Source: Hydrurus foetidus (Eukaryota). Taken from it: a stretch of DNA of 36,422 bases. Each line of letters opens with the position of its first letter. Positions within the stretch are counted from its first letter, which is position 1. Below the pieces are notes generated by a model that worked only from the letters and a program-made list of their open reading frames with translations, was not told the origin of the DNA and did not search any database. Positions 3,931 to 35,877 of this stretch are shown piece by piece. Location: positions 1 through 36,422 of the forward strand of contig UYFQ01000499.1 in NCBI GenBank assembly GCA_900617105.1, in the 5' to 3' direction. Position numbers and translations under genes: made by a program.

Positions 3931-4129
3931 AGAGTGTTTCCGCAAAAACGTTTTGGGCACTGGACACCACCGAAAAAAAAAGTTAGCCCAAAACTTTTCA
4001 AAAAAGCACTCTGAGAAATCGGCCACCGTCACTGAAGCCTCAGAGATTTTGAAATTTATTTTTGTCGAACGTGCACCTGCGCAACGAGGCTCATAGAGAG
4101 TCAGAAATCCAATCTTTTCGAGTCGGAAA

Positions 4130-4903
4130 ATGGACAGCAGCTCAAGCGAGGATGTGCCGAAGGCCAAGAAGGTCAGGGCCACGATAAATTGGACTGACAC
4201 AAAACTCGAGGCTTGCCTACAGCAGGTCAAGGTCAGCAAATGCCATACAGGCAAGGGGCTCACTGCAAAGTACGAGCTTGTGGCATCGATTTTAAATGCC
4301 AAAAATGAACACTTCAAGGATAGCGTCTTAACTGGGCCTAATCTCAAAGCAAAGGTTGATAAAGCAGTCATCAACTATGAGGGAAAGTTTCTATCCATGG
4401 AGGCAAACAAATCCGGATTTGAGGGTGACCGCGACGATGAGAAGAACTACACATCGATAGAGCTCCTCGCAAAATCTCTATATCAGGACATCAAGAAAGA
4501 CGAGGAATCGAAAGTAGCCGCGAAATCAGGCTTGGATGACCTCAGCAAACAGAAGGCAGGATTGGAGGCTTCTGCGTTGGGGCTTTCAAATCGGCCCATG
4601 AAAGCCGCAATCAGTCGGACATCACCCTCTGACAGATCCTCTCGAGAACAGGAGAGCAGAGCCTCCACGATTAACACACCTGTTCCAGCCGAAGATCCTA
4701 TGGGCTTATTCCTCGAAAGCTTCGCGAAATCAAAGACCCAGGAGGCAACAATCAGTATGCAGCGTTGGGAAGAGGAAAAAAGGGTGGCAAATATTCGTGA
4801 GGCGATGGCAGAGAGAAACATGCTTTTGGAAGAAAGGAAGTTAAAGCTCGCTGAGGATAAGCTACAGTATGATTTATTACTACTGAAATCTCAAAACCGG
4901 TGA
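4130..4903 (+). CDS. Myb/SANT-like DNA-binding accessory protein of the Harbinger-group element (257 aa)
   Basis: Intact ORF inside the TIRs; INWTDTKLEACL...KYELVASILN...LTGPNLKAKV trihelix-like pattern and C-terminal coiled coil. Confidence 0.75.
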   Translation: MDSSSSEDVPKAKKVRATINWTDTKLEACLQQVKVSKCHTGKGLTAKYELVASILNAKNEHFKDSVLTGPNLKAKVDKAVINYEGKFLSMEANKSGFEGDRDDEKNYTSIELLAKSLYQDIKKDEESKVAAKSGLDDLSKQKAGLEASALGLSNRPMKAAISRTSPSDRSSREQESRASTINTPVPAEDPMGLFLESFAKSKTQEATISMQRWEEEKRVANIREAMAERNMLLEERKLKLAEDKLQYDLLLLKSQNR

Positions 4904-4948
4904 ATGATCGACTTAAATTTTGAAGTATACTTATACGATATTAAATGA

Positions 4949-6227
4949 TTAATGAAGCCACTCCTCAATACTTGGCGGAGTGCAACTAAAAAAATTTGAT
5001 GTTTTATTTTCATTCAAGCACACATAACAATTACGTAGTATCATCGCTGTAACAAAAGTTTCTCTAACTGGAGTTTTTAAAAGTTGTTGTTTATTGGAGT
5101 AATCAACGAAAGGGAACAGTGTTTTAATTTCACCATAATGCCACTCAACATGCTCCCTACAACTGCTCATTACTCTGTTCTCTAATCGCTCAATTTCAGT
5201 GATATCATCACCTTTGTATCTAGAAAGTAAACACGATATCCATGGGAAAATTGAGTCACCGTACATTTTGAACAAATCATCAGGATTAATACCATAGTCT
5301 GTCTGAACTCTCTCCAGCTTTGAATTAATATCACTATTTGCCAACCAAGTGAGGTCACTGTGTCTAGAAGATTCGCCACTTGAAGCAAAATAAAGTCATG
5401 CCGCAAGGAGATTCTACAGTACCATACTTCATCCCACAGTCAGCGAGCCACCCGTTGTAGAAGACCCTTTGCAACCACCCTGCTGGGTCTCTTCTCGCTG
5501 CATCAGGACCGTCCATCGCCGGTCCAGAACCAGGACGAGAGATAATCTGATTGCAGCAATCTGTTACCATCGCGATACGAAATTGATCTGGCACGAAATT
5601 AAGCTGACCGCCTGAAAGTGCTACAGCTTTTGATCGAATGGCCTCCGCGAACCTCCCAAAATGCGGCACCCAGAAATTCAAGTTGTCGTACAGTCGCCAT
5701 CCGTGCTTGCGTTCCATCCATGTTACGAAGTATGAAAAGACTTGAGATAGCCACGTGTGACCACGATGGAATATTCTCTCGAAATCTTGCAAGCGCGCGA
5801 CTGAGGTAATTCTGGTTAAGCCGACTAAAAAGAGCTCCTCTCCACTGCACGTACGCCTCGAAGGCATCACTATCTTTGCTGGAATATTCAGGGAATTATA
5901 TAATCTCACCAACTGCTCTGTGCTCCGAAATCGAAATGTGCTAGGTATCTCGATTGAAGAAAAGGACAAAATTGTGACTCGAGGGTGGATAACTCTATCA
6001 GGCTGCATCACCGCAACTTCCTCGGTTAGTCTGCTGTAAAATATCATCGATATGACGATCAACTCTTCCATTTCTGCTTTGGTGGGGTTGTCATCAACAG
6101 CAGCAAGAATAAGTATCAGCTGCTTGATTCGCTTCAAGTCCCTATTAGCAATCCGTTTCTCTTTGCATGTCATCCCGAGATATCTCCTGTGCAAAGAATA
6201 GGCTTTGATGGACTTTCTCTTCACCAT
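4949..6227 (-). pseudogene. Harbinger-type DDE transposase with one +1 frameshift
   Basis: Motifs VTDCC, FYNGW, RHSD, YGDSIF, REHVEWHYG; removing one base from the A run at 5387-5390 joins ORFs 5364-6227 and 4949-5344 (MTLF-ASSGESSRHSDLTWLANSDIN). Confidence 0.88.
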
Positions 6228-6639
6228 CGCTTTGACATTTGATTATCAGTGTCGTCAGCCGATAGTGGAAGATACTGACGTTCTAAGCTTGACAAATACT
6301 TCTTTGCCAACGAAAATTCGATTTCTCTCCGCGGAAACACAGATTCTCAAAAGTTTTGTGTAGAGGGGCGCGGTGCACAAAATTTTCTTGCGGAAACACT
6401 CTAATACCGTTATTGGGCATTGTAACATACTCTGCGTACATAATCGTACGGGAGTCAATTTTCGTGTCGGTGTACATATATCTCGAAAATGCACACCGGA
6501 TTATAAATATATATATTTATTTATTTTTTTTTCAAAAAAAATTAATTTTTTTTTTTTTCGAAGTGATATGCAAAATTAAAGTAATTGCATCACAATTGAA
6601 TCCAATGCTTTACATCTTTGCTATACTTCACTTATACCT

Positions 6640-9600
6640 TTGGTTGTGTGTAGTGGCTTAGATCGTACTGGCTATAGTAATAATACTGTAATCGATATAG
6701 GTATTAATTTCAAATCGATAAATAACGTATGCCATACCATATATTTGACTGTAAGGGTCAAACAATCGTCGCTCATAGACTTAATTATTGGCAGAGTCTC
6801 TTTAAATAAATACTCGTTTTTTAAATTAACTCCTTTCGCTCTTGGGATAAGTGAGGAACACGAACCGATTTCCTCGGCAAGTTCCGATTGCACAGCGTGC
6901 GACGAACTACCTGATGTCGAACCATTACTTTCGCAACGGTTCACAAAAATATTATCCAGTGATAAGATTAATAAAAATTTGATAAAAAATTCAAATATCT
7001 TACCTATTGAAGAACAGTCAGTTGTAACTCAACTTTTTTTCTACTTCTAATATCCTAAGGGACTTCGGACAACCTACAACCGAAGGGGAAAGACTGACTA
7101 TCTGTGGTCACTCATGTTGTTCGTCCGGGACAGGGTCCTGTCCGGCATTATTGGAATTAGCTACTCCAGAGGCCGGCTGTGAGAGGGGTCGGGCAGTTCA
7201 TGGGAGTATCGTTCACCCTGAACTGACTCGTGACGGTGATACACCTCCCGAAGATGGATTAGATTACATCCCTCCGACACCAGGGTTTCTTAACGACGAA
7301 ACGCATGACACTTTAGGCCACTCGCCAAGTGTTGTCATTATCAGTAACGATGAGATTGACAGTGAGAAAACCGATACTTTCGGACCTTTCCTCCAAGGGA
7401 CTAGCCCTGATTTACCGCCCGACAGTAACGGGTCAGACAAGTTTCTTGACGAAATAACTTTCGTTGGTATGGAAGACCAAATAATTGCAATGAAACTTCT
7501 CTGCTTAGAGTTTCGCGACTTGTTCAGCAATAAAATTGCAACTCTACCAGCTAAACTAGATCCGTTTAGACTGGATGTGAGGGAACAAGAATGGGAAATA
7601 TCCGCAAACCGGACCCCGGTCCGACCCCAATCATCTCGTAAAGAGATTGAAATAAAAAGCCTTAGACGAGATGCTTTCATTAGGTATCATCGAATCTTCG
7701 AGTGCAGTCTATTACAGTCACCCTGTAGTAGTACAAAAGACAGCTGATACGTATCGATTCTGCATCGATTACAGACTCTTAAATGCGTGCATGCAACCAG
7801 CTAGTTTTCCGCTACCGAATATTCGGGGTCTTTTTGAACGCATTGGCCGTCACCAAGCCGATATTTTCGGTGTAATGGACTTAACTGCCGGTTACCATCA
7901 AGCTCCGCTTTATGAACCACATCGCCATTTTACGGCATTCATATGCTATGCAGGCATATTCCATTTTACTAGACTCCCCTTTGGACCTAGGTGTGCTCCC
8001 TCTTACTTCCAAGAGCAGATGGCCACCAAAGTCCTTCGCGGTCTCATATATATGATATGCGAAATATATCTTGACGATATAATTATATATGGCCGGGGAT
8101 TTGCAGAGTTTCTTAGTAGACTGAGAGAGATATTTTTACGTTTACGTGAATTTCGCATTTTGCTTAAAGCAAAGAAATGCAAATATGGTTGTAAAAGCCT
8201 AGAGTATGTTGGTCGTACAATCTCAAAAGACGGATTATCCATGTCTGAGACAAAAATTGAGTCTATACTCAACTTTCCAAGACCACAGACTTTAACAGCA
8301 CTTCGCTCGTTACTGGGTCTTGCGAACTATTTTAGAGGATTTGTACCAAATCACTCTACTATAGTCGCACCTTTACAGAGATTAGTTGATTCTAAAGCTC
8401 ACAAAAAATCACCAATTATTTGGACACCTAGTGCTATACTAGCATTCCAACACGTAAGAGTGGCTATATCAAGATGCCCTCTAATGTATTTTCTTGATGA
8501 AAAGTCAACTATTAAGTTATACACTGACGCATCAGATTATGGAATCGGTGGTGTGTTAATTCAAGTTGTTAACAATGGAGACCTATCGCTTTCATTAGCA
8601 AGTCACTTTCTGCAACACAATTAAAATGGTCCACGATACAAAAAGAAGCTTATGCTATCTATTACTCGTGTCAACAACTTGATTCTTTAATTAGAGATCG
8701 AGAGTTTGAAATACATACCGATCACAAAAACATTACATATATGAAACAAACACCAACGTCAATGGTGTCACGGTGGTTTATAGCTTTACAAGAATTAAAT
8801 TTCAAAGTTATATTTGTGAAGGGCACACAAAATCAGCTAGCAGACGGTCTATCAAGACTTTGTCCCAACATAGCTAAGTTAGCTTTACCGTTCACACCGG
8901 TAGCTACTAGCAATAATGAAATAGTATTATCTGCACTGACAGTTATACCTGAACCTAATCCAGAACAACTTGAATGGATGGAACAATGTCACAACGCAAT
9001 AGTGGGACATGGTGGTTCTTCTAGAACTCTTACCAAACTTTTCAGTTTAGGTCATGCATGGAAGTATATGCGACAGCACGTACGTATGTTCATTGCATCT
9101 TGCCCATGCTGTCAAAAGATGAGCATGATAAAGGTACCGGTTGAAGTTCAACATTATGTGACTTCTTCTAACCGACCTTTTGACGTCGTGAATATCGATT
9201 TTATCGGGCCATACCCAGACGATTCATACGTTCTTGTTATTATTGACACATTTTCTAAATGGATTGAACTTTTCCATTGCAAAGATGCCACTGCTAAATC
9301 AGCATGTGAGGCACTCTTGCAACATTTTGGTCGCTACGGCGCTCCCAATATGATTAGATCTGACAAAGGTTCTCATTTCGCAAACGATTTGATAAAAGAG
9401 TTTCTTGTTTTAACAGGTACTCCACACAACCTTACATTATCTTATTCTAAACAAGAAAATGGGGTAGTTGAACGTGCTAACAGAGAAGTCAACAGACATC
9501 TTCGCGCATTAACTTTCGAAACTAATGATGTAAATAACTACAGATTAAGTCTTCCATTTGTACAAAGAATTATAAATAGTTCTATACACGAAACTACAGG

Positions 9601-10239
9601 CGTAGCACCTGCTAGTATGTTGTTCGGGAATCAAGTAAATCTTGATAGAGGTATTCTTATACCCAATCCGGTAATTCGAAACACTGAAAAGAGCTCAGCT
9701 CTTATATCTAATATGTTATACATACAAGATCAAGTAATGCTAAATGCAATTGCAAAAGTAACACTAGCAAAAGCAAGACATTTAGTGAAAAATGCCAAAC
9801 CATTGACTGTATTTCCAGTTGGTTCATATGTTTTAGCAAAGTATGCTGTGGGGCCACCCACTCGTTTACACACTAAATGGCAGGGACCATTTCAGGTCAT
9901 TTCGTATATCGATTCAGAATACACATTACTTAATTTAGTGAATAAATCTGAACGAATTACCCATGCAAGTAATCTGAAGCAGTTTATTTTTGATCCTTCA
10001 AGAACATCTGCTCCAGATATTGCTAGACGGGATTATATGGAATTCTTTGTTGAATCCATTGTAGAACATCGTGGAGACACAAAACGATTAAATTCGCTGT
10101 TTTTAAAGTAAAATGGCTCAATTACGATGATTCACATAATTCATGGGAACCATGGAATGCATTAAGAACATGCGACAAACTACACGATTATCTTCGTTCA
10201 AATCAAAAGCTCAAGAAATTGATGCCTAAAAACTTCTAA
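6640..10239 (+). pseudogene. pol: pol of element A: partial protease, RT, RNase H, integrase, chromodomain; frameshifted
   Basis: IDLIIGR (protease C-term), RFCIDYR, DLTAGYHQ, LPFG, YLDD, TDASDYGIG, H-X4-H...CPCC, DFIG/SDKG/ERAN, KWQGPF, then FFVESIVEHRG...KVKWLNYDDSHNSWEP; frame breaks near 7655, 8575 and 10100; stop at 10237-10239. Confidence 0.95.
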
Positions 10240-10251
10240 ACATTAATTTGT

Positions 10252-10356
10252 TATTATGATGTGGTATCTTTTGAAGATTTTTTAGCCTAATTTTTTGCCC
10301 TCTGGGTTTTTATGGTTTTTTAGTCAGTAAGAATCTGACATACCCACATCATAATA
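10252..10356 (+). promoter_or_regulatory. Conserved structured 3' UTR element (ENE-like multi-way junction) of element A
   Basis: 13-bp closing stem 10252-10264/10344-10356; internal motifs shared with element D at 36317-36413 on the minus strand. Confidence 0.65.
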
Positions 10357-10619
10357 TATGTTATTTTGTACATACATTAATTTGTATTGATTTACAAAAT
10401 AAACTTATTTCCACGACCACTCCCGACTCTCTTTAAATTTTGTTATTTTGTTAAATTTCGTTTTACTATTTTATATTGAAATCTTTTCTTTTTCTTGTAT
10501 ATTTCTGTAATCGAATTACTTTTCATGTAAATATGTTAGTATCATTTTTAAATTTTATCTTATTTTTAAAAAAAATATAGCTTAATTAGAGATAAGTGGG
10601 AGTAGGGTCATTCTCTGTG

Positions 10620-10636
10620 GAGATAAGTAGGAGTAG
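10620..10636 (+). promoter_or_regulatory. Polypurine tract of element A (GAGATAAGTAGGAGTAG)
   Basis: Abuts the 3' LTR; near-copy at 10589-10605; 16/17 identical to the PPT of element D. Confidence 0.9.
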
Positions 10637-10854
10637 TGTAGCCATATGCCATTTAGTATGGCATTATGAGCTTCTAGGACTATCGGTCTACAGATCGGTC
10701 TACAGGGTCGTAGGCTTCCAGCCTCACCCTTACAACGTGTACTCTGCTATCATCTAGCTAGTCCACGTAGAAGTTACCCTAGCTACGGCTTTCCCCTGTA
10801 ACTAAGACTTCAGCTCCTCTCCTTTCCTTTCTCTCTTTTGCCATTCGGACTACA
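10637..10854 (+). repeat. 3' LTR of element A
   Basis: Direct repeat of 2286-2503, followed by TSD CAAC. Confidence 0.97.
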
Positions 10855-13484: not shown

Positions 13485-16400
13485 ATGGAAGACCTCAACA
13501 GCACTCTCGCGTCTCTTCAATTAGAGGATTTCGCCTCCGCAAAAATAAAAATTGATCAACTCTTTGTCGAATGGTTGTCAACAGAAGGTTTACAATTCAT
13601 CGACGCCATTTTATGCTCTGACGACTTACTCAGCAGCGACGATGAGGGAGGATTAAGCTGCCGGAATGGGGACTCTTTCAGCGGACTATCTTATGGCTTA
13701 GGACCCATTCCACCAAGATCTCCAACCAACACAAAAAAGTCACCAAAGAAGCGAACGCAATCCGAGATGCAGAACAATACCAATTCAAATATCAGCAATA
13801 ACACTTCACTATCACTGGCAGCGGAGAATTCAAAATCCACAGAGGGTTTGGGTTTAGCTGGAGTAGATCAGGCTCAAGGCAGCTCGTCGGCTTCAAAAGA
13901 CGAAGCTGATGGGGATTCTGAAAACGAAGCTCAAATATCTGCACGACGGCGATCTAACTTTGACAGCATACCACTTTTCTACGTACCTGGTGGCTCTAGA
14001 CAGAAAGATCAGAAATCTCGGATACGGCAAGGTAACGAGTGGCTGATAATGTCGCAAGAATATCCTGCTGTCCCTCGTTTCGTACTGCTTCCAATGCACT
14101 CATCGACTTTCACACATCATTTGCGAAGGAAATCGCATTGAAGAGGATCAATTATCGCGTAGACTGCCTGAAATTGAATCCCACTTCGCTGGATTCGCTG
14201 AAGGGATCCCTGTAGGCAGCTTTGTGCACATGACAAAGAGGATGTGTGGTATACCTTCCTTTTTCAACTTGCCCCTATGCAAAAGAATCAATGAGAGATT
14301 TGGCGATAAAACAGAAAAAGATAAGGCAGATTCATCCACCAGCAACTCTTCAGACTCCAGGCAGGCACACAGTATTCATGTGAAGCTAAACACTTTCTTG
14401 AAATTTTGGGAAGCCGAAATAGAACCCTATGACCGACTAGAGCGATTTTTCAGAGCCATCAAGCAGCCTGACGCAGAATGCATATACAAAGACGACTTCG
14501 TGCCGTTCATCCAAGAGCTGCTGCACTTTCACCCTGGCTTAGACTTCCTAGACAATCACGAGGAGTTCCAGCGTAAATACGCTCTTACCGTGATAACGCG
14601 CATCTTCTACAAAGTGAACGTGTCCCGCACCGGTAAGCTGTCTCTGAAGGAGGTGCGGAACAGCACTCTCATGAACGCCTTCATGCACGTTGATGAAGAG
14701 ACAGACATCAACAGAGTGATGGACTTCTTCAGCTACGAGCACTTCTACGTCCTCTACTGCCGCTTCTTCGAGCTCGATGCCGACAAGGACTCCAAGATTG
14801 GCAGAGAGGACCTGCTGAGGTATGGGGAGCACTCCCTCTCAGAAGCCATCGTTGACAGGTAACTACTGAGGGGCCATGAGTTGTGTCATATTCGTACATG
14901 TTGCGTTCTCATATACTTGAAGCTCTCGAGGACTCCGCGGTAGGGAGTGTCTTCATGTCTGACACCCGCATGAAGGAGTGGCACTGCACTGCACTTCTCA
15001 CTCAGCAACATTATGCCGCGCAGAATATTCCAAGTGGGTCTGAGGCCGTTCTCAGACGGGCGTGAGGGTGGTTTCGGCCAAACAGGGATGTCTTTCCCTG
15101 ACTTCATATTCTTCATGCTGGCCGAGGAAGACAAATCTTCAGAAGCAGCTCTGCGATACTGGTGAGTCTCTCTCTCTCATTATCTTTATTTTACTTTATC
15201 TGCCTATCTATCTCCAACTACCTTTCTATTTTTCTTCATCCACCACTTTATTTCTCTATCTATCTCTTTATTTCTATCTTTCTCTTCTTCTTGACACTGT
15301 TTCCATCGGAAGACATCCATCCATATCTCCACACGTTGTTATGACTCTCTGTGACCCGACTTTGCTGAAGATTTCATCACGTGACAGCACACTACACCAC
15401 ACTGCTTTACAGGTTCGTGTGCTGCGACTTGGACGGAGACAGCAGACTGGCACCTCAAGAAATGAGACACTTCTACAAAGTGCAGCTGCACAGAGTAACC
15501 AGTCTGGTGAGTCTGTCAACTCCACCGCTATCCTACTCCATGGCGTGACATTCATCCGCCCTGTTCCTCCATCATGCGGTGCAGCGATTGAGTTGCATTC
15601 ATTTGAATTGAGTTGATTGCATGATGCGTGAGATCATCAGTGTGAAAAGCGCTTGAAGAGTTAGTGCAAGACGATGTTGGTTTGGTTTGTACGACTTGCA
15701 GTGAGTCTGTCCCGCACACCTTGCTACTGCGTGACGTGATGAGATGAGATGTGATATGATGACATGTGATTTGCTGCACTGAGTCTCGCCACCTCTAGTA
15801 TTTAAGACACCGTGTAATGCACACTCGTTCCGTGTGGTGTGCGAGGGCGCATGTGTGTATGTGCAGTGACGCATCGCAATCTGCGCGTCCGTCTAGCAGG
15901 GCGCACTGCACTATCCAATCTGTGCTATCTCTGGGGTTTCAACACATATGGGGTTCACGCACTTAATTGAATGGCTATCACAGGGTCAGGAGGGCATCGA
16001 GTTCCAGGATGTGCTGTGCCAGATGGTGGACATGATCTGCCCTCTCGACAGCCAGTCCATCACGCTCAGCGACCTCACGAAACCGAACAAGAGGCACATC
16101 AGCGGTGAGTCTTCCTTTGGCACTGTCATTGATCACATAATATCTCGGAATAGCGCAGAGTCTCACCTGTAGAGGATAGAAAGATGTAGATGATAGAAAG
16201 ATGTAGAGGATAGAAAGATGGCTGTCGGTGGCTCCTCGTTGCAGAGATGTGTATATTTATTCCTGTGCTTGATTTATTTATGTCCCTCTCATCGGTCGTA
16301 CTTACTAACTACCCCTCAGGCGTTCTTTTCGATGTTCTTTTCAACTTGCACAAATTCCTCCGATTCGAGACGCGAGACCCCTTCCAGGAGAAGCAGAAGA

Positions 16401-23350: not shown

Positions 23351-24211
23351 GCATTCAGATATCTTATGTCCATCATTTGATAGCCATCAGACGCGTCTTC
23401 TTTCACAGATGAAGTGGTTTTTCTCCAGTCACATTCGAAGTAAGTTTTCTCCGGTGCAGTGTACGTTCATCACTACAATATGTTCATGAAACCACCCTTG
23501 GAGAGGACATTTTATTCGGCACCCATTTACGGACATACTAAATCAATTGAAGATATACTTTAAAACTGAAAAAAACACTTAAAGGTGTGTAAAAATACTA
23601 AAACATGTAATGTTCTACTACAAGATTTGTATAGTCAAATGTGTGTAACTTCTACTATTTCAATAAAAGCTGTACTAAAAACAACGAAATGATACTATTT
23701 AGATAGACCATTGTACTAATACCTGTGAGTCCGTTGTTGGTCTACCAAACGATAGATATCATCCGAGTTTATTTCGTGTGCAGCCAATCAAGGCTACGTC
23801 AACAAATCAAGGCTTTTCTAACCCTATATCTACTGATAGCTGTAGCCATCTACTCATTTATTAACCCTAACCCTGACCGCCCCCGAGCCATTCTAATCCT
23901 AACTGAAACCAGAAGAAAAACGACATGACTTCTACGTGATAGCCCGAAGTTACTATTATGAAATTCCAAAAAAAAAGTAGAAATAAAAGTGCAGCATCAT
24001 GAATTCAGTATTGCGCACCAATTAAAGTACGACTTCCATGAAATAGTAGGTCGATCTTTACTTTAGGGTATAAAATCCATATTTTAGTACAGCTGTGTTT
24101 TGGTAAATTTTTCAAGATTTTGGTACAGAATCTATGTTATAGTATTTATTACCAGATTTTAGTATGCCCATATATTTGCCCGATTTTATTCTGCTGTCGT
24201 ACGGCTGGTTC

Positions 24212-24473
24212 TGTTGATAGCGCACGTACAACATAGTTAACACGCACCGTACGCAGCGTACACACCAGGGCGCACGTACAACACATGTAACACACATTGT
24301 ACGTAGCGTACATACACTACACATCGTACGCAACTATCATTTTCAAACACTGTCAATTGCAGCAACAGTTAGCCATGCGTATTGACTTCCATCCCGCATA
24401 ATTTAATTCCAACACCTGTGAAACACGTACATTCGTTTCACCTTTGGTGCGCAATTTAATCTGCGGATCAACA
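24212..24473 (+). repeat. 5' LTR of the young Copia
   Basis: Direct repeat of 29578-29839. Confidence 0.97.
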
Positions 24474-24484
24474 GTTGGAATTAA
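24474..24484 (+). promoter_or_regulatory. PBS-position 11-mer GTTGGAATTAA complementary to LTR 24403-24413
   Basis: Exact reverse complement of TTAATTCCAAC inside the LTR; abuts the LTR end. Confidence 0.75.
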
Positions 24485-24491
24485 CCTCATC

Positions 24492-25586
24492 ATGGCCACT
24501 TTTCCGGTGACTTTAATGGATCAACCTCGACAAAATTTTCGGTCATTTTATCGGGCAGCAGTCGCCTCCTATGGTGCTGCGTGCACCACAGTCCACCAGC
24601 ACGGCCTGCTTGGATTTATCTTAAATGATGCACAATGGGAACAACTTCCCGGAAATCTCGTTCCCAACGCCGATCCTGAACTACCAAACGAAGTCGTGCC
24701 TCGCCCTACCATCATTCTTCCCGTCACGCCGGCTGCCAACGCCACTGCCCTCACCATCAAAGTCTGGGAGAAGCGCCTCGCAGAAAATGTTCTAGTGACC
24801 GATAGCCTAAGATCTCTCAAAGCACAACTTATCGCCAGCGTCCAACCAGCTGATATCGTCATTCTACACGACCCATTTTTTGGTCTCCTCAATGTGCCGG
24901 CATTGACAATAATGATACACCTTACAGAACTCCACGGCACGTTGAACAGCACCGACTTCGCCCACCTTCGCTCTCAACTGTCACTCCCGATGACACCCCA
25001 CGCATCTCTCCAGGATTTTATCGGGACACACCAGTTACTTCACGATCAATTCTCAGAAGCTCAGCAACCCCTGTCCGAACTTGACAAGTGTCATCACTTT
25101 CGCGAAGCAGTTAAAACGCTTGCACACATCAATCATGCAATCGACTCCTACTTAGTCGCTCATCCCCTAGTGGGGGGACAAAACTTCAGAGCGCTCACCG
25201 CACACACGCTCCAATAAGCACCCAACTTCACTCCAACAGCTGCAGCGATGGGTTACGCAGCGACCATCACCCAAAATCACAGCACAATTCTCGACGTTGA
25301 CAACGTGTCCGCACTACTGCACACACCAGCATTCGCCGCTCTCATCACAGCCGCCGTAAAGGCGGCCACTCCGGTTAATCCTCGCGGCCAACGCACCCGC
25401 ACCCCGGCTGCGAAACGTCCCCCGGCTGCTGCCCCCCAAAAAGACAGACTGTATTGTTTCCACCACGGGTATGACAGTCATCGCGGTTCCGACTGTAGAC
25501 ACATGTTCACGAATGACTTCGCCGCTGATCAACGCGCCACTACAAATCACAATACTATATCCGGTGCGTCCACCGCTCGATTCTGA
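24492..25586 (+). CDS. gag: Copia gag with one internal in-frame TAA (25215-25217)
   Basis: ORFs 24492-25217 and 25218-25586 share a frame; C-terminal knuckle YCFHHGYDSHRGSDC (CHHC type). Confidence 0.85.
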
Positions 25587-28500
25587 CGGTTAGGGGCGGC
25601 GCAAGAGCTTTTCTGTTATCTTCCTGCACGGTGTAACTTAACTCAAACAACCTCTTCAGTCGTCCCCCCTTCCCTTTGTGCCGACACTGGATCCACGCAC
25701 ACGTTGCTCCGTGCATCAGATGCCCCATATATCAATAGCATCGAAACAAGTCTTCATGTGCTCCTCCCCAACGGCGCTACTATCTCATCTATCGGTGCTT
25801 GCAACCTCGATTTTCCAAACCTCCCGCACACTGTGCCGTGTCACATCTTTCCAAATGACGTTCTCAATACTTCCCTATTATCCATATCGCAACTTTGTAA
25901 AATGGGATGTGTCGCTACTTTCTCGGCCTCCGATGCCTCAATCACATTCAGCAACCGCCCCGTACTACGTGGCCTCAAATCGCCCGACGACAACCTATGG
26001 ACTCTACCTTTTCTAGCCTTCAACACTGCACTCCTTCCCACAGTACGTGCTGCGTACGCACTGTCATCAGATGCCTCGTTTGTAAAATTCACGCACGCTT
26101 CACTTGGTAGCCCCTCACTCACTACCTTGACGAAAGCTGTTCGTCGTGGCTATCTTCACTCGTACCCGCGACTCACATCACTCATGTTAAATGCTCATCC
26201 GCCAATTAGCATCGCCACAGCTCAGGGACATTTGGATCAACATCGCCAAGGTCAAAATTCAACTCAGATTCCTGTCACCATCTTTGACACAAACGACACC
26301 GATGAGGATCTCGTGCCAGCTGACGCTCCCACACAGCTCACCGCTTACACACGAGTTGTCCTTCTGTCCGATACTTTACATTCCGACCTCACCGGTCGGT
26401 TTCCGGTAACATCACACAATGGTGCTCAATACATATTTGTGTCAGTCTTAGACGGTTACATCCATGTTGAAACAATGAGAACAAGGCATCATACAGAGTA
26501 CGTTACAGCCTACAAAAAGACGCTAAACTTTTTCGCTCAGCGTGGCCGCCGGCCCGCCTTTCAACGCTTGGACAACGAGACATCCGGTCCTTTAGAAGCA
26601 TTCGCAACTGCCAACAACATCAGCATACAGTATTGCCCGCCGCACACACACCGCTCACTCAAAGCCGAACGAGCAATTCGCACTTTCAAAAACCACTTCA
26701 TAGCCACTCTGGGCACAGTAGCTTCAGAGTTCCCCATGACGCTTTGGGATGAACTGCTGCCGCAGGCCGAGCTTTGCCTGAATCATCTGCTGCCCTACAG
26801 TCCCAACCCCGCTGTATCAGCGTATGCTGGAATCCACGGCGGTGCGCTAGACTTCACTCGACATCCCATCGCTCCAGCCGGAACTCGTATCCTTATCCAC
26901 GACAAACCCACTGTTCGATCCTCCTGGGCACCGCATGGAGTCCCAGGATACTACCTCGGCCCCGCGCTGCAGCACTATCGGTCCTACCGGGTTTGGTCAT
27001 CCACTTCCAAAGCAACCCGCATCTCCGATACTTTAGCGTGGTTTCCTAGCGGGTTTACAGTCCCCGGACCAAGCCCACACGATAACCTTCTCGCCGCAGC
27101 TATAACGCTGAAGAAAACACTCACAGAATTTAATTCATTGCCTACACAATTTCGTACCAATTCGCAACCCGGAGTTTCCGTCATAGCATCCGTCATTACC
27201 GATTTGGCCGGGATCTTGGGTACAGACCCGGCCGGAACTGTGGGTACCGATCCGGATACCGTAAGTACACCCGCACCAACGCTAGCTCTCCCTGCGCCAA
27301 CGTATTACATCACACTCATAGCACCTTCAGTCGCTGCTATCCCTCTTCCTTTGCCGGACTCTCGCCAAGAACAGAGGGTGGTCCCCAATATAAGCACTAC
27401 CGATCTACCTCCTTTATCCCCTCCGTTTGCAGAACACGAAGTGCCTCAACCTCTTGTGTCCCCATCAGTCCAGATACCAGCCGGTCCACACCAACATCTG
27501 AACACTTCCACCCAATATGACTCTCCCAACATTCGCATCACAAGCCATCATCCACGACGACCATCGGTACCGCTCCCACCTCAGATCTACAGAAATGCTA
27601 CCCACCCACCTCAGTTCGCAGCTGCCCTTACCACGCTTAATCTTGACGACCACGGCCAACCGTTACGTTACTCAACCGCCAAAGCAGGGTCCAATGCACT
27701 ACTGTGGCAACAAGCCGAATCCGAAGAGCTCGACAGACTTCTTGCAACTGAAACGATTCGGCCCATTTTCCTGGCTCAGCAACCTATTGATCGCAGACGG
27801 GATACAACTTATTACAACCCTCAGACAAAAGAAAAGCAAAATGCTTCAGGTGAAAGAACATACCGCATCCGTGGCACCATCGGTGGCGATCGTATCCATT
27901 ATCCCGGCCCGACAACTGCTCGAACCGCTGCAATGCCCCTGGTAAAAATCCTTCTTCAATCAGTCATATCCGACGGAAGCAAATGGCTCACCATTGATAT
28001 CAAAGATTATTACCTAAACACGCCACTTCCTCGCCCTGAGTACCTGCGCATCGCGTCAAAATTTCTCCCGTCTACAGTAATTCATCAACACGACCTTCAG
28101 CAATTTTTTCATAATAATGCTATCCTCTTCCAAGTCAACAAAGGTATGTATGGGCTCCCCCAGGCAGGACTCCTCGCACAACAAAGACTCATCACTCACC
28201 TGGCATCCGAAGGCTATCATCAAACCGATACTATTTGTCTCTTTCGCCATGTGACTAATGGAACGGTGTTTTCGCTTGTCGTCGATGACTTTGGAGTCAA
28301 ATACACAAATATGGACGGCGTCAACCACTTAATTCAAACGCTCCAAGCCTTATACACCATCACCGTTGACTGGACAGGTTCCAAGTATCTCGGTTTCTCG
28401 ATTGACTTTGATCAACGTCATCGTACTGTTACGCTCAGCATGCCAGGTTATATTGCTAAAGTGCTTCAGCGCTTCGCGCCATTACTCAAAATTGGAGCCA

Positions 28501-29414
28501 ATTCTCCAGCTGTATACATCCCACCCAAGTATGGCGTCGGACAACAGACACCACACATCGACACCAGTACACGTCTATCACCCGCAGAAACTACTACATT
28601 ACAAGAGATTGTTGGCTCCCTTCTCTATTACGCCAGAGGTGTAGATGTAATCATATTGCCGGCGGTAACACACCTGTCGTCCCTACAAGCGCAACCTACA
28701 CAAGACGTTCTCCAGGCCGCGCAACGCCTCTTAGCTTACTGCTCACGCTATCCCAACAATGGTCTCCGATACTATGCATGCGATATGATCTTACATATTC
28801 AGTCGGACGCTTCCTATCTCTCTCGTCCCGGAGCTCGTTCTGTAGCTGGAGCTCTCTTTTACCTGGGAAATATTGGTCAACCCACACACATCAATGGTTC
28901 TGTACACGCACTCAGTTCTATCATACCTGCTGTCGTGGCCTCTGTCGCTGAAGCTGAATATGCAGCTCTCTTTCACGCTGGCCAAGAGGGAATTTGGCTC
29001 CGGCATATTCTCCAATCGCTCGGATATCCTCAACCGTCAACAACCATTCTGTGCGATAACAAATGCGCTGAGGGAATCGCATTAGACACCATAAAGCCAA
29101 AACGCACCAAAAGCATCGACATGCGTTTCCACTGGATTCGTGATAGAATTCGTCAAGGACAATACACAGTCACATGGCGCAAAGGAGCCGACAATCTTGC
29201 TGATTTTTTCACAAAACCTCTGCCTGTTCACTTACATCAAAAGCTTATGCCGCTGCTCGTTCACATTCCTCCTGCCCAGTACGCCACAAACACCACAAGC
29301 TCAGCATCTCGTGCACTCACTCATCGAAACAAAAAGGCTTCAACCACCGAAACTCCCCCTAATTATACTGATTTGAAGGACGAGTTGGTGGGATTCACCT
29401 ACAGTGCTTCGTAG
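25587..29414 (+). CDS. pol: Copia pol (protease, integrase, RT, RNase H), open and in frame with gag after TGA
   Basis: LCADTGSTHT, HSDLTG, RLDNE, AERAI, RGTIGGDR, IDIKDYYL, KGMYGLPQAG, VVDDFG, QSDASYL, EAEY, CDN, ADFFTK; no stops from 25587 to 29411. Confidence 0.96.
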   Translation, partial: RLGAAQELFCYLPARCNLTQTTSSVVPPSLCADTGSTHTLLRASDAPYINSIETSLHVLLPNGATISSIGACNLDFPNLPHTVPCHIFPNDVLNTSLLSISQLCKMGCVATFSASDASITFSNRPVLRGLKSPDDNLWTLPFLAFNTALLPTVRAAYALSSDASFVKFTHASLGSPSLTTLTKAVRRGYLHSYPRLTSLMLNAHPPISIATAQGHLDQHRQGQNSTQIPVTIFDTNDTDEDLVPADAPTQLTAYTRVVLLSDTLHSDLTGRFPVTSHNGAQYIFVSVLDGYIHVETMRTRHHTEYVTAYKKTLNFFAQRGRRPAFQRLDNETSGPLEAFATANNISIQYCPPHTHRSLKAERAIRTFKNHFIATLGTVASEFPMTLWDELLPQAELCLNHLLPYSPNPAVSAYAGIHGGALDFTRHPIAPAGTRILIHDKPTVRSSWAPHGVPGYYLGPALQHYRSYRVWSSTSKATRISDTLAWFPSGFTVPGPSPHDNLLAAAITLKKTLTEFNSLPTQFRTNSQPGVSVIASVITDLAGILGTDPAGTVGTDPDTVSTPAPTLALPAPTYYITLIAPSVAAIPLPLPDSRQEQRVVPNISTTDLPPLSPPFAEHEVPQPLVSPSVQIPAGPHQHLNTSTQYDSPNIRITSHHPRRPSVPLPPQIYRNATHPPQFAAALTTLNLDDHGQPLRYSTAKAGSNALLWQQAESEELDRLLATETIRPIFLAQQPIDRRRDTTYYNPQTKEKQNASGERTYRIRGTIGGDRIHYPGPTTARTAAMPLVKILLQSVISDGSKWLTIDIKDYYLNTPLPRPEYLRIASKFLPSTVIHQHDLQQFFHNNAILFQVNKGMYGLPQAGLLAQQRLITHLASEGYHQTDTICLFRHVTNGTVFSLVVDDFGVKYTNMDGVNHLIQTLQALYTITVDWTGSKYLGFSIDFDQRHRTVTLSMPGYIAKVLQRFAPLLKIGANSPAVYIPPKYGVGQQTPHIDTSTRLSPAETTTLQEIVGSLLYYARGVDVIILPAVTHLSSLQAQPTQDVLQAAQRLLAYCSRYPNNGLRYYACDMILHIQSDASYLSRPGARSVAGALFYLGNIGQPTHINGSVHALSSIIPAVVASVAEAEYAALFHAGQEGIWLRHILQSLGYPQPSTTILCDNKCAEGIALDTIKPKRTKSIDMRFHWIRDRIRQGQYTVTWRKGADNLADFFTKPLPVHLHQKLMPLLVHIPPAQYATNTTSSASRALTHRNKKASTTETPPNYTDLKDELVGFTYSAS

Positions 29415-29577
29415 ACCGACACCCATACCACCGCCGGCGAGCACCCTTTCGGGGATCGAACCGACGGCCATTCGATTATGATTGATCATCACTGACCTAT
29501 CACGTCACAACTCTGTCTTTTTGTCCTGAAAATACGAATACATATCTGTTCAAGCATGCACCATGTTTGAGAGGGTG

Positions 29578-29839
29578 TGTTGATAGCGCACGTACAACAT
29601 AGTTAACACGCACCGTACGCAGCGTACACACCAGGGCGCACGTACAACACATGTAACACACATTGTACGTAGCGTACATACACTACACATCGTACGCAAC
29701 TATCATTTTCAAACACTGTCAATTGCAGCAACAGTTAGCCATGCGTATTGACTTCCATCCCGCATAATTTAATTCCAACACCTGTGAAACACGTACATTC
29801 GTTTCACCTTTGGTGCGCAATTTAATCTGCGGATCAACA
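29578..29839 (+). repeat. 3' LTR of the young Copia
   Basis: Direct repeat of 24212-24473, followed by TSD GGTTC. Confidence 0.97.
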
Positions 29840-29940
29840 GGTTCTTATGTATGTTGGATATTGCGTGCATAGGGCTGATGTTAGTAGAGAGGTGTACTTA
29901 CGTACGTTACTTTCAGGCCTGAATGTAACGCACTACACTT

Positions 29941-30214: not shown

Positions 30215-33200
30215 TGTTGCGAACACTAAGCTTCGTGCACGGTGAACAGGGACGCCGTGCACAAGTTTTAATATCAAGTACTTGACTATCACATAGTTAT
30301 TTTACGAGCCTCAGAACGTTCCCGTAAGCTTCACAGCTACCTGAACCGTGGATTTCTGACATATTAAAACTAGAGGACAGCAAAGTGTTGCCGCCCAAAC
30401 GCGCAGCGGAAGCAAAAGATTCAACACCGGAATGCATGCTCTGCATAGGAAAATTCAACAACATCGTAGCGTGGAATCTCGAAATGAGCACTTCAGTGGG
30501 CGCCGTGTATGGACTCACTGCCAATTTCCTGCTGACGAACATCAGATATGTACCACCACTGCCTCGCAACGAGGATTTCACAGTAGTGTACCCGGTACCT
30601 GCGGAGGGGGAACGAGACGCTGTGGCGATCACCGCAGCACTTACTGCAAAACCCGCATGAAGTCAATCATACAAGCGAGGGAAGACGAGGCCAAAATCTG
30701 GTCTCTAATGTGGCACAAAATGTCACCCGCGTCGCGCTGCAAATTACAGGAACAAGCCGAATATACGGCAGCGCACGTCAGGAAGGACTGCGTCGTCCTG
30801 TGGGATCTCATCAGACGCACTCACCTAACACACATAAACGGCGAAGGAGATCACCTACAACTGCTCAATGTGAAAGAGCAGGAGTGCCGATACGAGGTCC
30901 TCAAGCAAGGTGAAAGAGAACATCTAGCTAACTTCATGACTAGATTTGAAGCGCAGGTCCTGGCTTGCAGAAGTGCCGGGGTACCAGAAAACGCGCGATG
31001 GACTTCGTATACAAGCTGGACAAGGCGAGATACGGCGGCATGGTGGGAGATATGCGCAACGCTGCCAACAGACTGGAACCAAACGCATACCCACCGACGG
31101 TCATCGCCGCTGTCCGAATTGCAACCGGATACGTGACGAATGACCCAGGGTTCTCACGGCCACCCGGTACAGATACCGATACCCACACTGCTCTGGTAAC
31201 AGACACAGACCCAACCGGCAAGGCCGACGACGTTAAACAAGCCAGGAAAGGAAAACCCGGCACGAAGAAGAAAGGCAAGTCCACTGTGGAATGCTTCGTG
31301 TGTGGCAAGATGGGCCACTACGCCAGGGACTCTGACATTTGGGCCGTCCGACAGCGACGATGGGGAAGAGGATCTCGAGGAAGAGGATGTGGCCTACGTT
31401 ACAACCTTAGAGAGGGTGCTGTTCACACGGGACGACGTACTCCTGGACAGTCAGGCGTCGGTGGACGTATTCTGCAACCGAGAATTGCTAAACAACGTGA
31501 GACAGTCAGAGACGAGAGTTGTGCTGAACGGGGTTCAAGCCAAAGCGTCTGGAGTTTCTATAGATCAATAAGGGGATATCCTAGACGTGGGGAAATGCTA
31601 TTTCAGCAAGGAGGCGACAGCGAATATTTTATCATACGCTGTAATGGTAGACGCAGGCAATGACGTGAGTTACGACAAGGTTAACGACCGATTCATACTC
31701 AAGCCGGCTGGGAGCCGGAGAGTGTACTCGTTCTGCAGGAAGAAAGTCAGTGGAAGCGAAGGAAGGTTTTACTGTTGTCATGTGAAGACAATGGTACAGG
31801 AAGAGCCTACGTCGTATCCGGAATCAACAGATCATGCGATGATAGAAATCGTTGAAACAATCTGATGAAATACACCAAGCGTGAGATCGCTGGTGCAGAC
31901 AGGGCGCGGCTGCTGCTGGCGAAGATGGGTTTCCCATCTGTGAGAAACGCGATCGACATTGCAACTTCGACGTGACAGCTAGGGATTTCTCTATAGCTGA
32001 GGATATCTATGGGAAGGATATTGCGACGATGAAGGGTAAAACAAAGAAGCGAGTGTCCATATGTGCAGACATAACTGTGGGTGCCGCTGTGGTGCAAGTG
32101 GAACAAGTTCTGTCAATAGACGTGATGTTTGTGGACGGCGTGCCGTCTCTAATAGGACTGGCAACGCCGCTGGACCTAACCATGGCGGTGACCCTGTCAG
32201 CATTCGACTCTGCTCAGGGCCCGAGGTCAGCGGCCGTCGTTAAGAAGGGAATAGACGGATTCGTTGCAACGCTCGCATCGAGAAACTTCATCACGAGGAT
32301 GATAATGAGTGACGGTGAGGATGCAGTGGGTAAGATCAAGGAGGATCTCAACATGCTGGGTATTGAAGTCGACATCTCTGGGGCAGGAGGTCATGTGGCG
32401 AGAATAGAACGGAAGATACAGACGGTAAAGGAACGGCTGCGAGCGTACATTGCTCACCAACTACCATTCACTCTAACATATCTGGGCGTGGCAATGTTAG
32501 TACTATTTTGCGTTTCTAGGTTGAACTATCAAGTTTCATCGGTCAGCGGGTAATGTTCTCCGGGAGACAGACGGACGGGAAGATGGATTTCAGAGCAGGA
32601 TTCGGGGAATACGCGCAATGCACCGTGCCGAACACCAACAACACCATGGAACCGAGGACTGAAGACTGCATCGTTATGCTGCCGACAGGAAACAGAACAG
32701 GATCGGTCAAGATGATGTCGATCAGTACCGGTAAGTTGATCACAAGAGATCAATTTAAAATACTACCGATGTCGTCTTATGTTATCACAAAGCTGAACGA
32801 GATGGCGATGGCGGAGGGAAAGAAACTACTCCGGAGATCCAAGTTGGTGTACGAAGTCGAAAGAGGGTTGCAAATGACTGAAGAACCCACGTACCTACGG
32901 CCGACCCAAGATCCTGCGGCCAACCTGGACCCTGTAGTCACAGCCAACCCCTACACCCAGCTAGATCTGGATGACGGCGAGAGAGAGGAGTACCAATTCG
33001 ACCCCGCGATGGTGAATGACATCATGGGATACCCTGAAGACTACGATGAGCCGATCGTGCAGGGTGGGGAACTCAATATGGAAGACTTGGATGTTAAGGA
33101 GCTCCAGGAGTTCGGACCGGGTACACCCGGAGTATACCATCATCCCGACGCGGCGGTACCGGTCACTCCACCAGGGAATACACAAACACCTATATACACG

Positions 33201-34737
33201 GCTGTGTCGACGGGATTTGACATGGGAGCGGGAGGAACCCTCGCACAAACATACGGTGACCACGACGTGGCGCTGTACGCTGATCGTACGTACCAGAGTG
33301 GAGGCGTGTCGGAGGAACGTGCGATGAACATCACGGTGAAAGAAGCACTTAAGAGTTGGGGTGACGAAGCTAAGAGGGTGATCAAGAAGGAATTGAAGCA
33401 AATGATCGACAAAAGAGTATGGACTCCGGTGCGCGTGTCGTCGTTGAGTACAGCTGAGAAGAAGAGCATCATCCGATCGCAGATGTTCCTTAAAGAGAAG
33501 TACCTCCCCACGGGGAAGTTCGAGAAGCTCAAAGCTAGACTGGTGGCTGGGGGCAACCAACAGGACAAGGATCTGTATGATGACATTTCCTCGCCTACAG
33601 TGTCGACTAGTGCGGTCATGACAGTAGTCGCAGTAGCGGCGTTTGAGAATTGGAAAGGCAGCGTGATGGACATCGGGGGTGCATTCCTAAATGCAACGAT
33701 GGGAAAGGTAACTGAGCATATGCGACTAGACCCGACAATGTCAGCCATGTTGGTTGAGCTAGACGGAACGTACGGCACGTACACGGACAGCAGAGGATGT
33801 ACGGTGGTACGGCTTGAGAAAGCCCTGTACGGGTGTGTGGAGTCCGCAGCACTGTGGTATAATAATCTATCTGCATCGTTCATGGATGCCGGTTATAAGA
33901 AGAACCAATACGAGATATGTGTATACAATAAGAGGAACGTGAATGGAGTGCAATGTACAGTGGCTGTACACGTTGACGACCTCATCATCACAAGTAAAAG
34001 CGAAGAGATGATCGCGGACCTAAAGGGATTCATAAAGAATAGGTATGGGGAAATAACGTCTGCAGACGGACCCGTGCTGAATTATCTTGGTATGGTATTT
34101 GATCTATCTATTCGAGGCCAAGTTAAAATGACTATGCAGGGATACGTCGAGGACACCGTAGCGTACAGCGGGATCGTTGGCCACTCCAGGAGCCCTGCCA
34201 CCAGTGGACTGTTCGACACCAGAGATGGTGCGGTACTGGCGTCAGAGACGCAGAGATCATGGTTCCATAGTGTGGTGGCCAAACTAGCGTATCTGGCGAA
34301 GCGTGTGAGACCTGAGTGCCTTACCGCTGTGGCGTTCCTTGCGACACGGGTGACGAAATGCACCGTCCACGACGTCGAGAAGCTGAAGTGGGTAGTACAA
34401 TACATCGCGTACACGAGGGAGCGAGGAGTGATCCTGAGACTGGAAAAATTGGGGGTGTGCGTACGGTTGTACGTGGACGCCGCATACGGGGTGCACGGTG
34501 ACGGCAAGTCGCACACAGGGAGCTGTGTCGTGATAGGAGACGTCGGAGCTGTCCACTGCAAATCATGCAAGCAGAGCATTGTGACCAAATCAAGCACAGA
34601 AGCGGACCTGATCGCGCTATCGGACTCGGCGGATCAAGGGCTGTACATCCGGAACTTCCTGCTGGCACAGGGGCACAGGGTACCGCCAGTTACGGTATAC
34701 CAGGATAACACGATGGAGAGAGGGAGATCTGGAGCAG
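30215..34737 (+). mobile_element. Second Copia lineage, decayed, interrupted in RNase H by element C
   Basis: Putative LTR from TGTTG at 30215 (possible end CAACA 30426; no second copy in the window); coding remnants 30385-34737. Confidence 0.9.
30385..34737 (+). pseudogene. gag-pol remnant of the second Copia with several frameshifts and stops
   Basis: CFVCGKMGHYARD knuckle, LLDSQAS protease, IDVMFVDG/SDGE/IERKI integrase, KARLVAGG/DIGGAFL/KALYG/VHVDD RT, YVDAAYG/SSTEAD/YQDN RNase H. Confidence 0.92.
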
Positions 34738-35877
34738 TGTGGTAGTTCCGGGTCCAAGGTCCCGATCCTACCGGATAGTACTACGGTACACTACTCACCG
34801 TACACTACAGTCTGTTGTATCGTCGTAGCCACTTACAGCCTCCACGTAGAAGTTCACCCTAGCTTCTAGCCTTTAGCTGTAACTAACTACCTCTCCCAGT
34901 CTTTCCCCTCTTCTTTGCCCATCCGAGTCATAATAGCGCTATTCCCACTCATCCTTCTTCGCTTCTTTCTCTACCTATCTACTTGTCCCAAACTTTTAGA
35001 TAGATTTCCAACGGAGTAGATTCACTCCACGACTTCCGAGGAGTCGTTTTCTCGTTGAGCCCGAAACTCCGAGAACTTAGTTTAAGTTTACAGGAGTTTG
35101 GCGTAGCCGCTTCCTGCTTGAAACCCTCCGAAAGGTGTCTTCAAAAGTTCGATTTTGGTCGAAGTCGCGAGAGGCTTCCCAACTCGAAATTAAGGAGTTC
35201 TCCACTAGCAATTTGGACACCGGTTCCACTGCTAGCGACATCAGATTAGTCTAAGGACGTCTTTTGGTCAACAGGAGTTTCTTCCTTCATCCTTAACAGG
35301 ACCTAACATTTGCAATCACCCAAAATTCGGCTTTCACGCCATAGAATTTTTCTCGACAAGAGTGGGTTGAAATTCTTTCATTCGCTGTTACTTGCGTAAA
35401 GTACCCGATACGCGAACGAGGCGAAGCTCTCGCAAAAATTTTTTGACGAGGAAAGCTCGTCCGCGCTTCGATACAACTCGATTTATATCGACTGCTCATC
35501 CTACGATAGGAGATGGAAGACGACGGTCTACATCCTGAGCCTGAGCCAAAGGAGCCAGACAACGAGCATGAGATTGATGAGGAAGGAAACATCCTTATCG
35601 TCTCACAAAGCTCACAATCGTCAAGCATGGGGTTTCCCCAGACGCTTCAGACCCAGCGTGAGATATTCATCCTACGGGGAGATTATATTACTCGGCAGGA
35701 TGCTGAAGAATTCTATGAGCAAGCACAACGCTTGCCTCACTTGCATATTAAACAATGCATGCAATGTCAAGCAATCGATTTGCTTCATGTTAAAATCTTA
35801 ACTGATCAGTCGACACTGGCAGTTATTACCAACGAGCAACGCCTTAATTGGCAAAACCTCCTTCCGATAGAGAGTGT
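34738..35877 (+). mobile_element. Chromovirus-lineage element C: 5' LTR (34738-34932), 5' UTR and start of gag
   Basis: LTR starts TGTGG and resembles LTR B; followed by palindrome AATAGCGCTATT (34932-34943); gag similar to that of A; breaks the Copia RNase H after ERGRSGA. Confidence 0.88.
35513..35877 (+). pseudogene. gag: gag N-terminus of element C, interrupted by element D
   Basis: Position after the 5' UTR and similarity to A gag; the ORF runs into the inverted LTR D at 35878. Confidence 0.75.

Follow-up and report, generated by a model that had tools for sequence, protein, structure and literature searches.

The contig UYFQ01000499.1 of Hydrurus foetidus (assembly GCA_900617105.1), which we analyzed over its full 36,422 nucleotides (nt) and refer to as the window, carries a complete Ty1/copia retrotransposon with long terminal repeats (LTRs) at positions 24212-29839. 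The coding sequence of the element runs in one frame: it opens with ATG at 24492, meets TAA at 25215-25217 and TGA at 25584-25586, and then continues through 1275 open codons to TAG at 29412-29414. Gag lies ahead of the TGA and Pol behind it, and the subject of this study is the possible readthrough of that TGA, which would join the two in one protein. The features of the element, including its open reading frames (ORFs), are listed below with the basis of each assignment.

24207-24211 (left) and 29840-29844 (right), plus strand: target-site duplication GGTTC, read from the sequence
24212-24473, plus strand: 5' LTR of 262 nt with TG...CA ends, a direct repeat with 0 mismatches to the 3' LTR over 262 nt
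24492-25586, plus strand: gag ORF (capsid and CX2HX4HX4C knuckle), interrupted in this copy by TAA; translation and alignment to relatives
25215-25217, plus strand: private nonsense codon TAA in gag, CAA in other copies; contigs of sequencing runs
25455-25496, plus strand: zinc-knuckle variant CFHHGYDSHRGSDC, of the form C-X2-H-X4-H-X4-C; translation
25584-25586, plus strand: TGA that closes gag within the frame of pol, put forward here as the readthrough codon; sequence and stop identity in relatives
25587-25592, plus strand: 6-nt spacer CGGTTA, in which CGG is the codon after the stop; sequence
25593-25607, plus strand: 5' arm of the stem-loop, composed of GGGGCGGC, a 2-nt bulge and AAGAG; minimum-energy and centroid folds
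25652-25666, plus strand: 3' arm of the stem-loop, composed of CTCTT, a 2-nt bulge and GTCGTCCC; minimum-energy and centroid folds
25587-29414, plus strand: pol ORF of 1275 codons, ending in TAG; translation and 678 homologues
25683-25691, plus strand: protease motif D-T-G, 32 codons past the stop; translation
27927-28478, plus strand: reverse transcriptase domain of the copia type, spanning pol residues 781-964; match to Pfam RVT_2 (PF07727) with E 4e-9
29569-29577, plus strand: purine-rich tract adjoining the 3' LTR, a candidate polypurine tract, read from the sequence
29578-29839, plus strand: 3' LTR, a direct repeat identical to the 5' LTR

The junction reads TTC TGA CGG at 25581-25589, with gag and pol in the same frame. 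There is no ATG in the 32 codons between the stop and the DTG motif, and the first methionine of the pol frame is codon 105. A first-pass annotation of the window had placed the TTC TGA CGG junction, the same-frame pol, the DTG at 25683-25691 ahead of any ATG, and a two-part stem formed by 25593-25607 and 25652-25666; these coordinates proved exact, and the stem is present in the predicted minimum-energy and centroid folds. Its gag-TGA-pol layout stands as well, but it overlooked the second in-frame stop, the TAA at 25215, and the precedent of the Candida element Tca2, to which we return below.

A protein search with Pol returned 678 homologues. Among the 120 listed, most are 1150-1350 amino acids (aa) long, which corresponds to pol alone, and only two exceed 1600 aa; many of the predicted proteins begin past the protease motif because no ATG precedes it. 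Metagenome contigs were scanned with an alignment of 41 Pol proteins, and 79 loci of the 563 confirmed relatives were taken for analysis. They originate from freshwater and marine samples and share 33-57% identity with the window's Pol. Viral contigs searched with the Pol alignment gave 60 pattern matches and genome contigs searched with the window's Pol gave 44, with no relatives in either set. Several metagenomic contigs of ~5.5 kb (L012, L019, L025, L032, L035, L039 and L041) are circularly permuted, with pol first and gag and the protease last, as expected if LTR elements assemble into circles.

Its reverse transcriptase and capsid fold place the element in Ty1/copia. In a Pfam search with the window's Pol, RVT_2 scores 36.8 bits against a cut-off of 31.6, and a sub-threshold match to SH3_retrovirus (E 0.016) lies upstream of it at about pol residues 432-480; the related protein P0102 contains rve and RVT_2 domains together. 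A PDB profile search with the Pol alignment gave no match. The gag of the window matches the upstream ORFs of 18 loci (phmmer), and its two pieces line up, in the same order, along the one upstream ORF that relatives have. A profile of 16 gag sequences has the Drosophila Copia virus-like particle (VLP) protein as its top PDB match, with E values of 0.0025 and 0.0059. We assessed the fold on the upstream ORF of one relative, L004, which aligns with the window's gag. Its AlphaFold model (predicted local distance difference test, pLDDT, 82) superimposes on the Copia capsid with Z 12.5 and 182 of 184 residues aligned (VIA-align), on the capsid C-terminal domain of Ty1 Gag with Z 11.1-11.4 and on PEG10 with Z 10.5, while unrelated chains remain at Z <=5. 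Foldseek alone gave no match for this model at E 0.001 or better. Pfam found nothing above the cut-off in the window's gag pieces and the upstream ORFs of 37 relatives, the best being Retrotran_gag_4 with E 0.0089 (L079). In the zinc knuckle, C-X2-H-X4-H-X4-C, His replaces the second Cys of the usual CCHC. Its residues C321, H324, H329 and C334 are nearly invariant in the gag alignment of the window's clade (A5), where the knuckle ends ~30 residues before the stop; the pattern is found in 14 of 53 upstream ORFs. By this model of a relative, the upstream ORF is a Gag with a predicted capsid fold of the copia/Ty1 type.

We located the protease with a profile hidden Markov model and walked the same frame upstream, which was possible for 60 sequences (59 loci and the window). 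Four of them reach the contig start and are uninformative, one (L029) is fused, and the other 55, the window included, have an in-frame stop 19-280 codons ahead of the start of the protease match. Counted over the metagenomic relatives, 54 of the 55 informative ones retain the stop before the protease. Upstream of it the same frame is open for 250-506 codons in most of the 55 sequences; the same-frame upstream ORF is short in L003, L066, L073, L028, L058 and the window, where the cause is its own TAA, and in L028 and L058 a long upstream ORF lies in another frame. The distance from the stop to the protease motif has a median of 52 codons, with an interquartile range of 40-77. The fused L029 is a single ORF of 1604 codons. 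Set against L022, its nearest relative, it no longer has the knuckle-bearing end of gag, nor the stop and the G-rich arm that comes after. Another single-ORF relative, P0046 (1649 aa), has Trp opposite the TGA of L023 in one alignment of 31% identity, and on the basis of that alignment the residue would fit a change of UGA to UGG. The existence of fused relatives means that the stop is not indispensable. A 1671-aa eukaryotic gene model, P0027, could not be checked against DNA.

One clade (L048, L057, L060, L066, L068, L070, L072, L076 and L058) is distinguished by 190-280 additional codons separating the gag stop from the protease. An extra domain encoded there would occur only in the readthrough product; Pfam gave no match to the extra 130-255 residues between stop and protease at eight loci.

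At a shorter evolutionary distance, we compared the element with close copies in contigs of seven distinct public sequencing runs (X1, X2, X3, X7, X8, X10 and X13) from the same or close organisms. All seven have C instead of T at 25215, at full depth in X1, X2, X7, X3, X10 and X13; a second contig comparison gave 896/996 for X2 and 13/18.3 for X8. The TAA is thus private to this copy, where the open frame directly upstream of the TGA has only 122 codons, the TAA being a second in-frame stop. Gag from this copy would be cut short, and the element is probably non-autonomous even though its identical LTRs point to a recent insertion. A nonsense codon in an element with identical LTRs implies a new insertion that was either already defective or mutated soon after inserting. 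The TGA, in turn, is covered by contigs of all seven runs, and among the differences listed none falls within 25572-25600, a stretch made up of the end of gag, the stop, the spacer CGGTTA and the G-rich arm. In the diverged contigs, which are 80-96% alike, changes lie on either side of it, at 25565, 25568 and 25571 and at 25601, 25606, 25609, 25611, 25613, 25620, 25625 and 25631. Two of the listed changes are located in the arms of the stem, and both keep the pair: 25663 T>C, found in all runs, turns G25596-U25663 into G-C, and 25606 A>G turns an A-U pair into G-U. The unaltered stop region among close copies is suggestive of conservation. These comparisons also bear on the idea that the TGA arose, as the TAA at 25215 did, by decay of a dead copy. 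The copy does have one private nonsense mutation, but contigs of the other copies contain the TGA too, and among relatives whose Pol is only 33-57% identical the stop persists between long intact ORFs. Decay is thereby refuted as the origin of the TGA, and we give it practically no credence.

The stops at the junctions differ from true terminators in their identity and surroundings. We compared a non-redundant set of 53 junctions (52 metagenomic relatives and the window) with the 28 terminators of pol ORFs longer than 900 codons. The junction stop is TGA in 48 of the 53, TAG in five and TAA in none, whereas pol ends with TGA in nine of 28, TAG in 11 and TAA in eight (Fisher test, 9e-8). C directly follows the stop at 31/53 junctions and 3/28 pol terminators (Fisher test, 3.6e-5). 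The stop is followed by the codon CGG in 16 junctions, by AGG in five, by CAG in five and by TGG in four, with GGG also occurring; G is present at nt 7, 8, 9 and 10 past the stop in 39, 35, 41 and 39 of the 53, respectively, and A precedes the stop in 16. The junction context is therefore UGA, then C and often CGG, with a run of G from nt 7, and is unlike that of the true terminators. The same counts address the notion that UGA is a sense codon in the nuclear code of the hosts, which would make gag-pol a single ORF. Some protists have reassigned UGA, but each element here contains exactly one in-frame TGA, always at the same place, and pol itself ends with TGA in 14 of 35 complete ends (9/28 where pol exceeds 900 codons). 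Since pol ORFs end in TGA, UGA is a true terminator in these hosts; a reassigned code is no explanation, and we consider it very improbable.

Downstream of the stop, folding of 110 nt with RNAfold produces a long hairpin at locus after locus, with a G-rich 5' arm a few nt past the stop and a C-rich 3' arm 60-100 nt further. Distal parts of the arms vary between loci yet remain complementary. An outer stem of at least 7 pairs is present in 48/53 minimum-energy folds, and the median span is 93.5 nt. Three tests of the structure were made, none of which fits an alignment to the structure. In the first, the folding energy of the 110 nt after the stop has a mean z of -1.41, with 23 of 52 junctions below -2, compared with a mean z of -0.08 and 13 of 186 below -2 for control coding segments from the same loci (Mann-Whitney, 1.2e-7). 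The second test paired the 29 nt beginning 3 nt past each stop with the downstream 95 nt of its own junction and of the other 52. The own partner was the best of 53 in 11 cases and among the top three in 20, with a median rank of 4 of 52 (Wilcoxon, 6e-7); the same pairing carried out 600 nt further on, as a control, gave a median rank of 24.5 and no case of the own partner being best. In the third, structure-blind MAFFT alignments of two subgroups were given to RNAalifold, which predicted a stem starting from column 10-11. The paired cells amount to 90.6% and 88.5% in the two subgroups, as opposed to 35-59% when the partners are slid by 1-3 columns; both sides have changed in 4/8 and 6/13 pairs, and the covariation scores of 0.406 and 0.487 were reached by 0 of 500 shuffles. 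A covariance model built from six sequences (R1), which is too narrow, found extra matches in L072 (E 0.0098), L068 (0.09), L047 (3.8) and L066 (9.7), all four starting exactly at the junction stop, and one stray match in L001; the window was not matched by it. The family thus has a covarying extended stem-loop between the stop and the protease, which starts 6-8 nt past the stop and closes 60-100 nt on.

In the window itself, GGGGCGGC (25593-25600) pairs with GTCGTCCC (25659-25666) in eight pairs, two of them G-U, and AAGAG (25603-25607) with CTCTT (25652-25656) in five. RNAfold recovers both helices in its minimum-energy and its centroid structure, and the resulting hairpin of 8+5 pairs has a 6-nt spacer and a 44-nt loop. 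It ends 17 nt ahead of the protease Asp codon, so that the poorly conserved peptide between stop and protease is largely a coding shadow of the RNA structure. The duplex of the window's own arms has an energy of -20.6 kcal/mol, against a mean of -16.7 for the cross pairings. An Rfam search of 25300-25900 found no family, only a chance match to ArcZ (E 1.7), and two attempts to align the window's own clade with MAFFT and RNAalifold left the 3' arms unaligned, with 0 pairs predicted. For this clade the support for the stem consists of the own-versus-cross test and the two pair-keeping changes among close copies. That the stem-loop exceeds chance can be argued only from the comparison with relatives.

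Pol could be translated separately, from a subgenomic RNA or by internal initiation or re-initiation, and the structured region would then be an entry or re-initiation element. An ATG is in fact found between the stop and the protease motif at 24/53 junctions, and a weak internal promoter was reported at the Tca2 junction (Forbes et al. 2007, PMC2194720). At the other 29, the window included, no ATG precedes the catalytic Asp. Independent initiation would also not require gag and pol to share a frame, which they do: 53 of the 55 sequences have a long same-frame upstream ORF or run to a contig edge. The fused P0046, with its Trp opposite the L023 stop, likewise speaks against separate translation, which we regard as improbable.

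A slightly better chance, though still a small one, can be given to a bypass of the stop on full-length RNA by other means: low-level splicing, editing that removes the UGA, or a non-canonical bypass as in Tca2, with the conserved stem-loop serving, for example, packaging or dimerisation. Tca2 (pCal) is a Ty1/copia element of Candida albicans with the layout gag-UGA-pol. Its apparent readthrough activity in yeast was due to the weak internal promoter, and the junction drove no readthrough there; Pol is nevertheless made from gag-pol RNA, and its authors state that the stop must be bypassed somehow (PMC2194720). Readthrough of a stop between gag and pol of a copia element has so far been suspected, not demonstrated, in this single element. 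Among the run contigs, no run being on record as RNA, there are no joints near the stop with GT..AG ends; the three joints found, 25516>26106 (CT..TT), 24770>25665 (AA..TC) and 25505>25670 (TT..CC), each come from a single contig of a single run. No splicing-specific feature is conserved, and those features that are conserved sit as in readthrough signals: UGA in preference to other stops, C next, and a stem 6-8 nt on.

We therefore return to readthrough. The Pol of the element is most likely made as a Gag-Pol fusion by programmed readthrough of UGA at a signal resembling that of alphaviruses, as judged from comparison of sequences and predicted structures. The 3' C or CGG would weaken termination at the UGA, to go by the literature on RNA viruses. 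The stem, held at the ribosome entry channel while UGA is in the A site, may make it likelier that a near-cognate tRNA (for Trp, Arg or Cys) decodes the codon, a mechanism proposed for alphaviruses, tobraviruses, furoviruses and coltiviruses; Trp is among the residues known to be inserted at UGA. Most ribosomes would stop and yield Gag, a few per cent would continue and yield Gag-Pol, and readthrough would in this way set the ratio of Gag to Gag-Pol needed for particle assembly. Programmed readthrough was also what the first-pass annotation had proposed, and it suggested checking whether other copies and families keep TGA-C and show a covarying stem. The outcome of that check favours the proposal, which gains support from stop conservation, context, stem statistics and compensatory changes.

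Several observations weigh against readthrough or weaken the case for it. The hairpin of the window taken alone folds no better than chance, with z -0.44 and 61 of 200 dinucleotide shuffles folding as well, and the 110 nt after its stop have a z of -0.23; in addition, its 5' arm finds an equally good partner in five of 52 foreign 3' segments. Around ten of the 53 loci have no own-versus-cross advantage, mostly those of the clade with 190-280 codons from stop to protease (L048, L057, L058, L066, L070, L072 and L076). The loci are akin to each other, and because of this relatedness the p-values overstate independence. Fused relatives exist (L029 and P0046), no more than 16 of the 53 junctions have CGG as the next codon, and the ~6-nt spacer of the window is below the 7-12 nt stated for viruses. 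Beyond the differences listed, the close-copy comparisons contain a further 178 and 134 with less support, and a rare change of the stop in a diverged copy may be among them. Finally, when 300 nt surrounding the Tca2 stop were assayed in a yeast reporter, readthrough did not rise above background (PMC2194720).

The remainder of the window contains only transposons and one host-like gene. A second LTR element occupies 2286-10854, with identical 218-nt repeats 8351 nt apart and ORFs containing RVT_1, RNase H, integrase zinc-binding and rve domains in the Ty3/gypsy order. A third retroelement at ~30360-34745 has an ORF with a classic CCHC knuckle upstream of a copia-type reverse transcriptase (RVT_2, E 2e-25). 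As its pieces do not share a frame, the element either has decayed or is of the frameshift type. The sole host-like gene seen is an ORF at 14050-14862 with an EF-hand_13 domain (E 1e-30), the domain present in PP2A B''-type regulatory subunits.

Readthrough of a stop between gag and pol is textbook knowledge for gammaretroviruses. For most copia elements, the main survey of retrotransposon gag-pol recoding, that of Gao et al. 2003 (RNA 9:1422), is said to give single ORFs. Our literature search, which did not cover that survey, found no description of UGA-CGG with an extended stem-loop in copia elements. The closest counterparts are the Type II viral signals, in which UGA-CGG or UGA-CUA is followed by an extended 3' stem-loop; they occur in alphaviruses, in tobra-, peclu-, furo- and pomoviruses and in coltiviruses, and their stem encloses a long loop and is set off from the stop by a spacer of 7-12 nt (Firth et al. 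2011, PMC3159437). They share with the copia signal UGA followed by CGG (as in the window), a stem (predicted in the copia case) of ~10 or more pairs a few nt past the stop, a long and poorly conserved loop, ~75-125 nt spanned in all, compensatory changes between relatives and sense-codon variants in some members. The copia signal differs in being located at the gag-pol junction of an LTR retrotransposon, not at the extension of an RNA virus replicase or coat protein, in its spacer of ~6 nt, and in that A before the stop is not conserved (16/53). CGG is likewise confined to 16 of 53 junctions, others having CAG, AGG, TGG or GGG; a conserved run of G opens the 5' arm of the copia signal, which is a predicted one.

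Tca2 resembles the window's element in belonging to Ty1/copia and in having gag and pol in one frame, a single UGA and a predicted RNA structure downstream. That structure is a compact pseudoknot like that of murine leukaemia virus (MuLV), in contrast to the extended stem-loop with family-wide covariation found here, and Tca2 is a single fungal element, whereas the present clade is wide and both freshwater and marine. In MuLV, gag and pol are joined by readthrough of UAG with an 8-nt spacer and a pseudoknot (PMC3159437). Likenesses to MuLV are the setting of the Gag to Gag-Pol ratio by readthrough of an in-frame stop, which is here proposed, a purine- or G-rich stretch after the stop and a structure from 6-8 nt downstream. 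The MuLV signal is of Type III, UAG followed by G, unlike the UGA-C of the window, although TAG is the stop in five of 53 relatives; and the hairpin with its long loop, predicted here with programs that fold without pseudoknots, stands against a compact pseudoknot. The CoDi elements of diatoms are, similarly, divergent Ty1/copia elements of aquatic protists, and the available part of the paper describing them proposes no recoding signal (Maumus et al. 2009, PMC2806351).

Taken across the family, we lean towards the view that a large, old and widespread copia clade of freshwater and marine protists expresses Pol through readthrough at an alphavirus-like UGA-C(GG) with an extended stem-loop. If true, the clade would be the first retrotransposon lineage to use a signal of this class, and it would show that cellular mobile elements in protists employ such a recoding device. 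The splitting of these elements into two ORFs by gene callers would be explained as well. The clade would supply dozens of naturally covarying versions of the signal, plus members in which the stop has been swapped for a sense codon, and would thus form a natural series of variants for finding which features of the stem matter.

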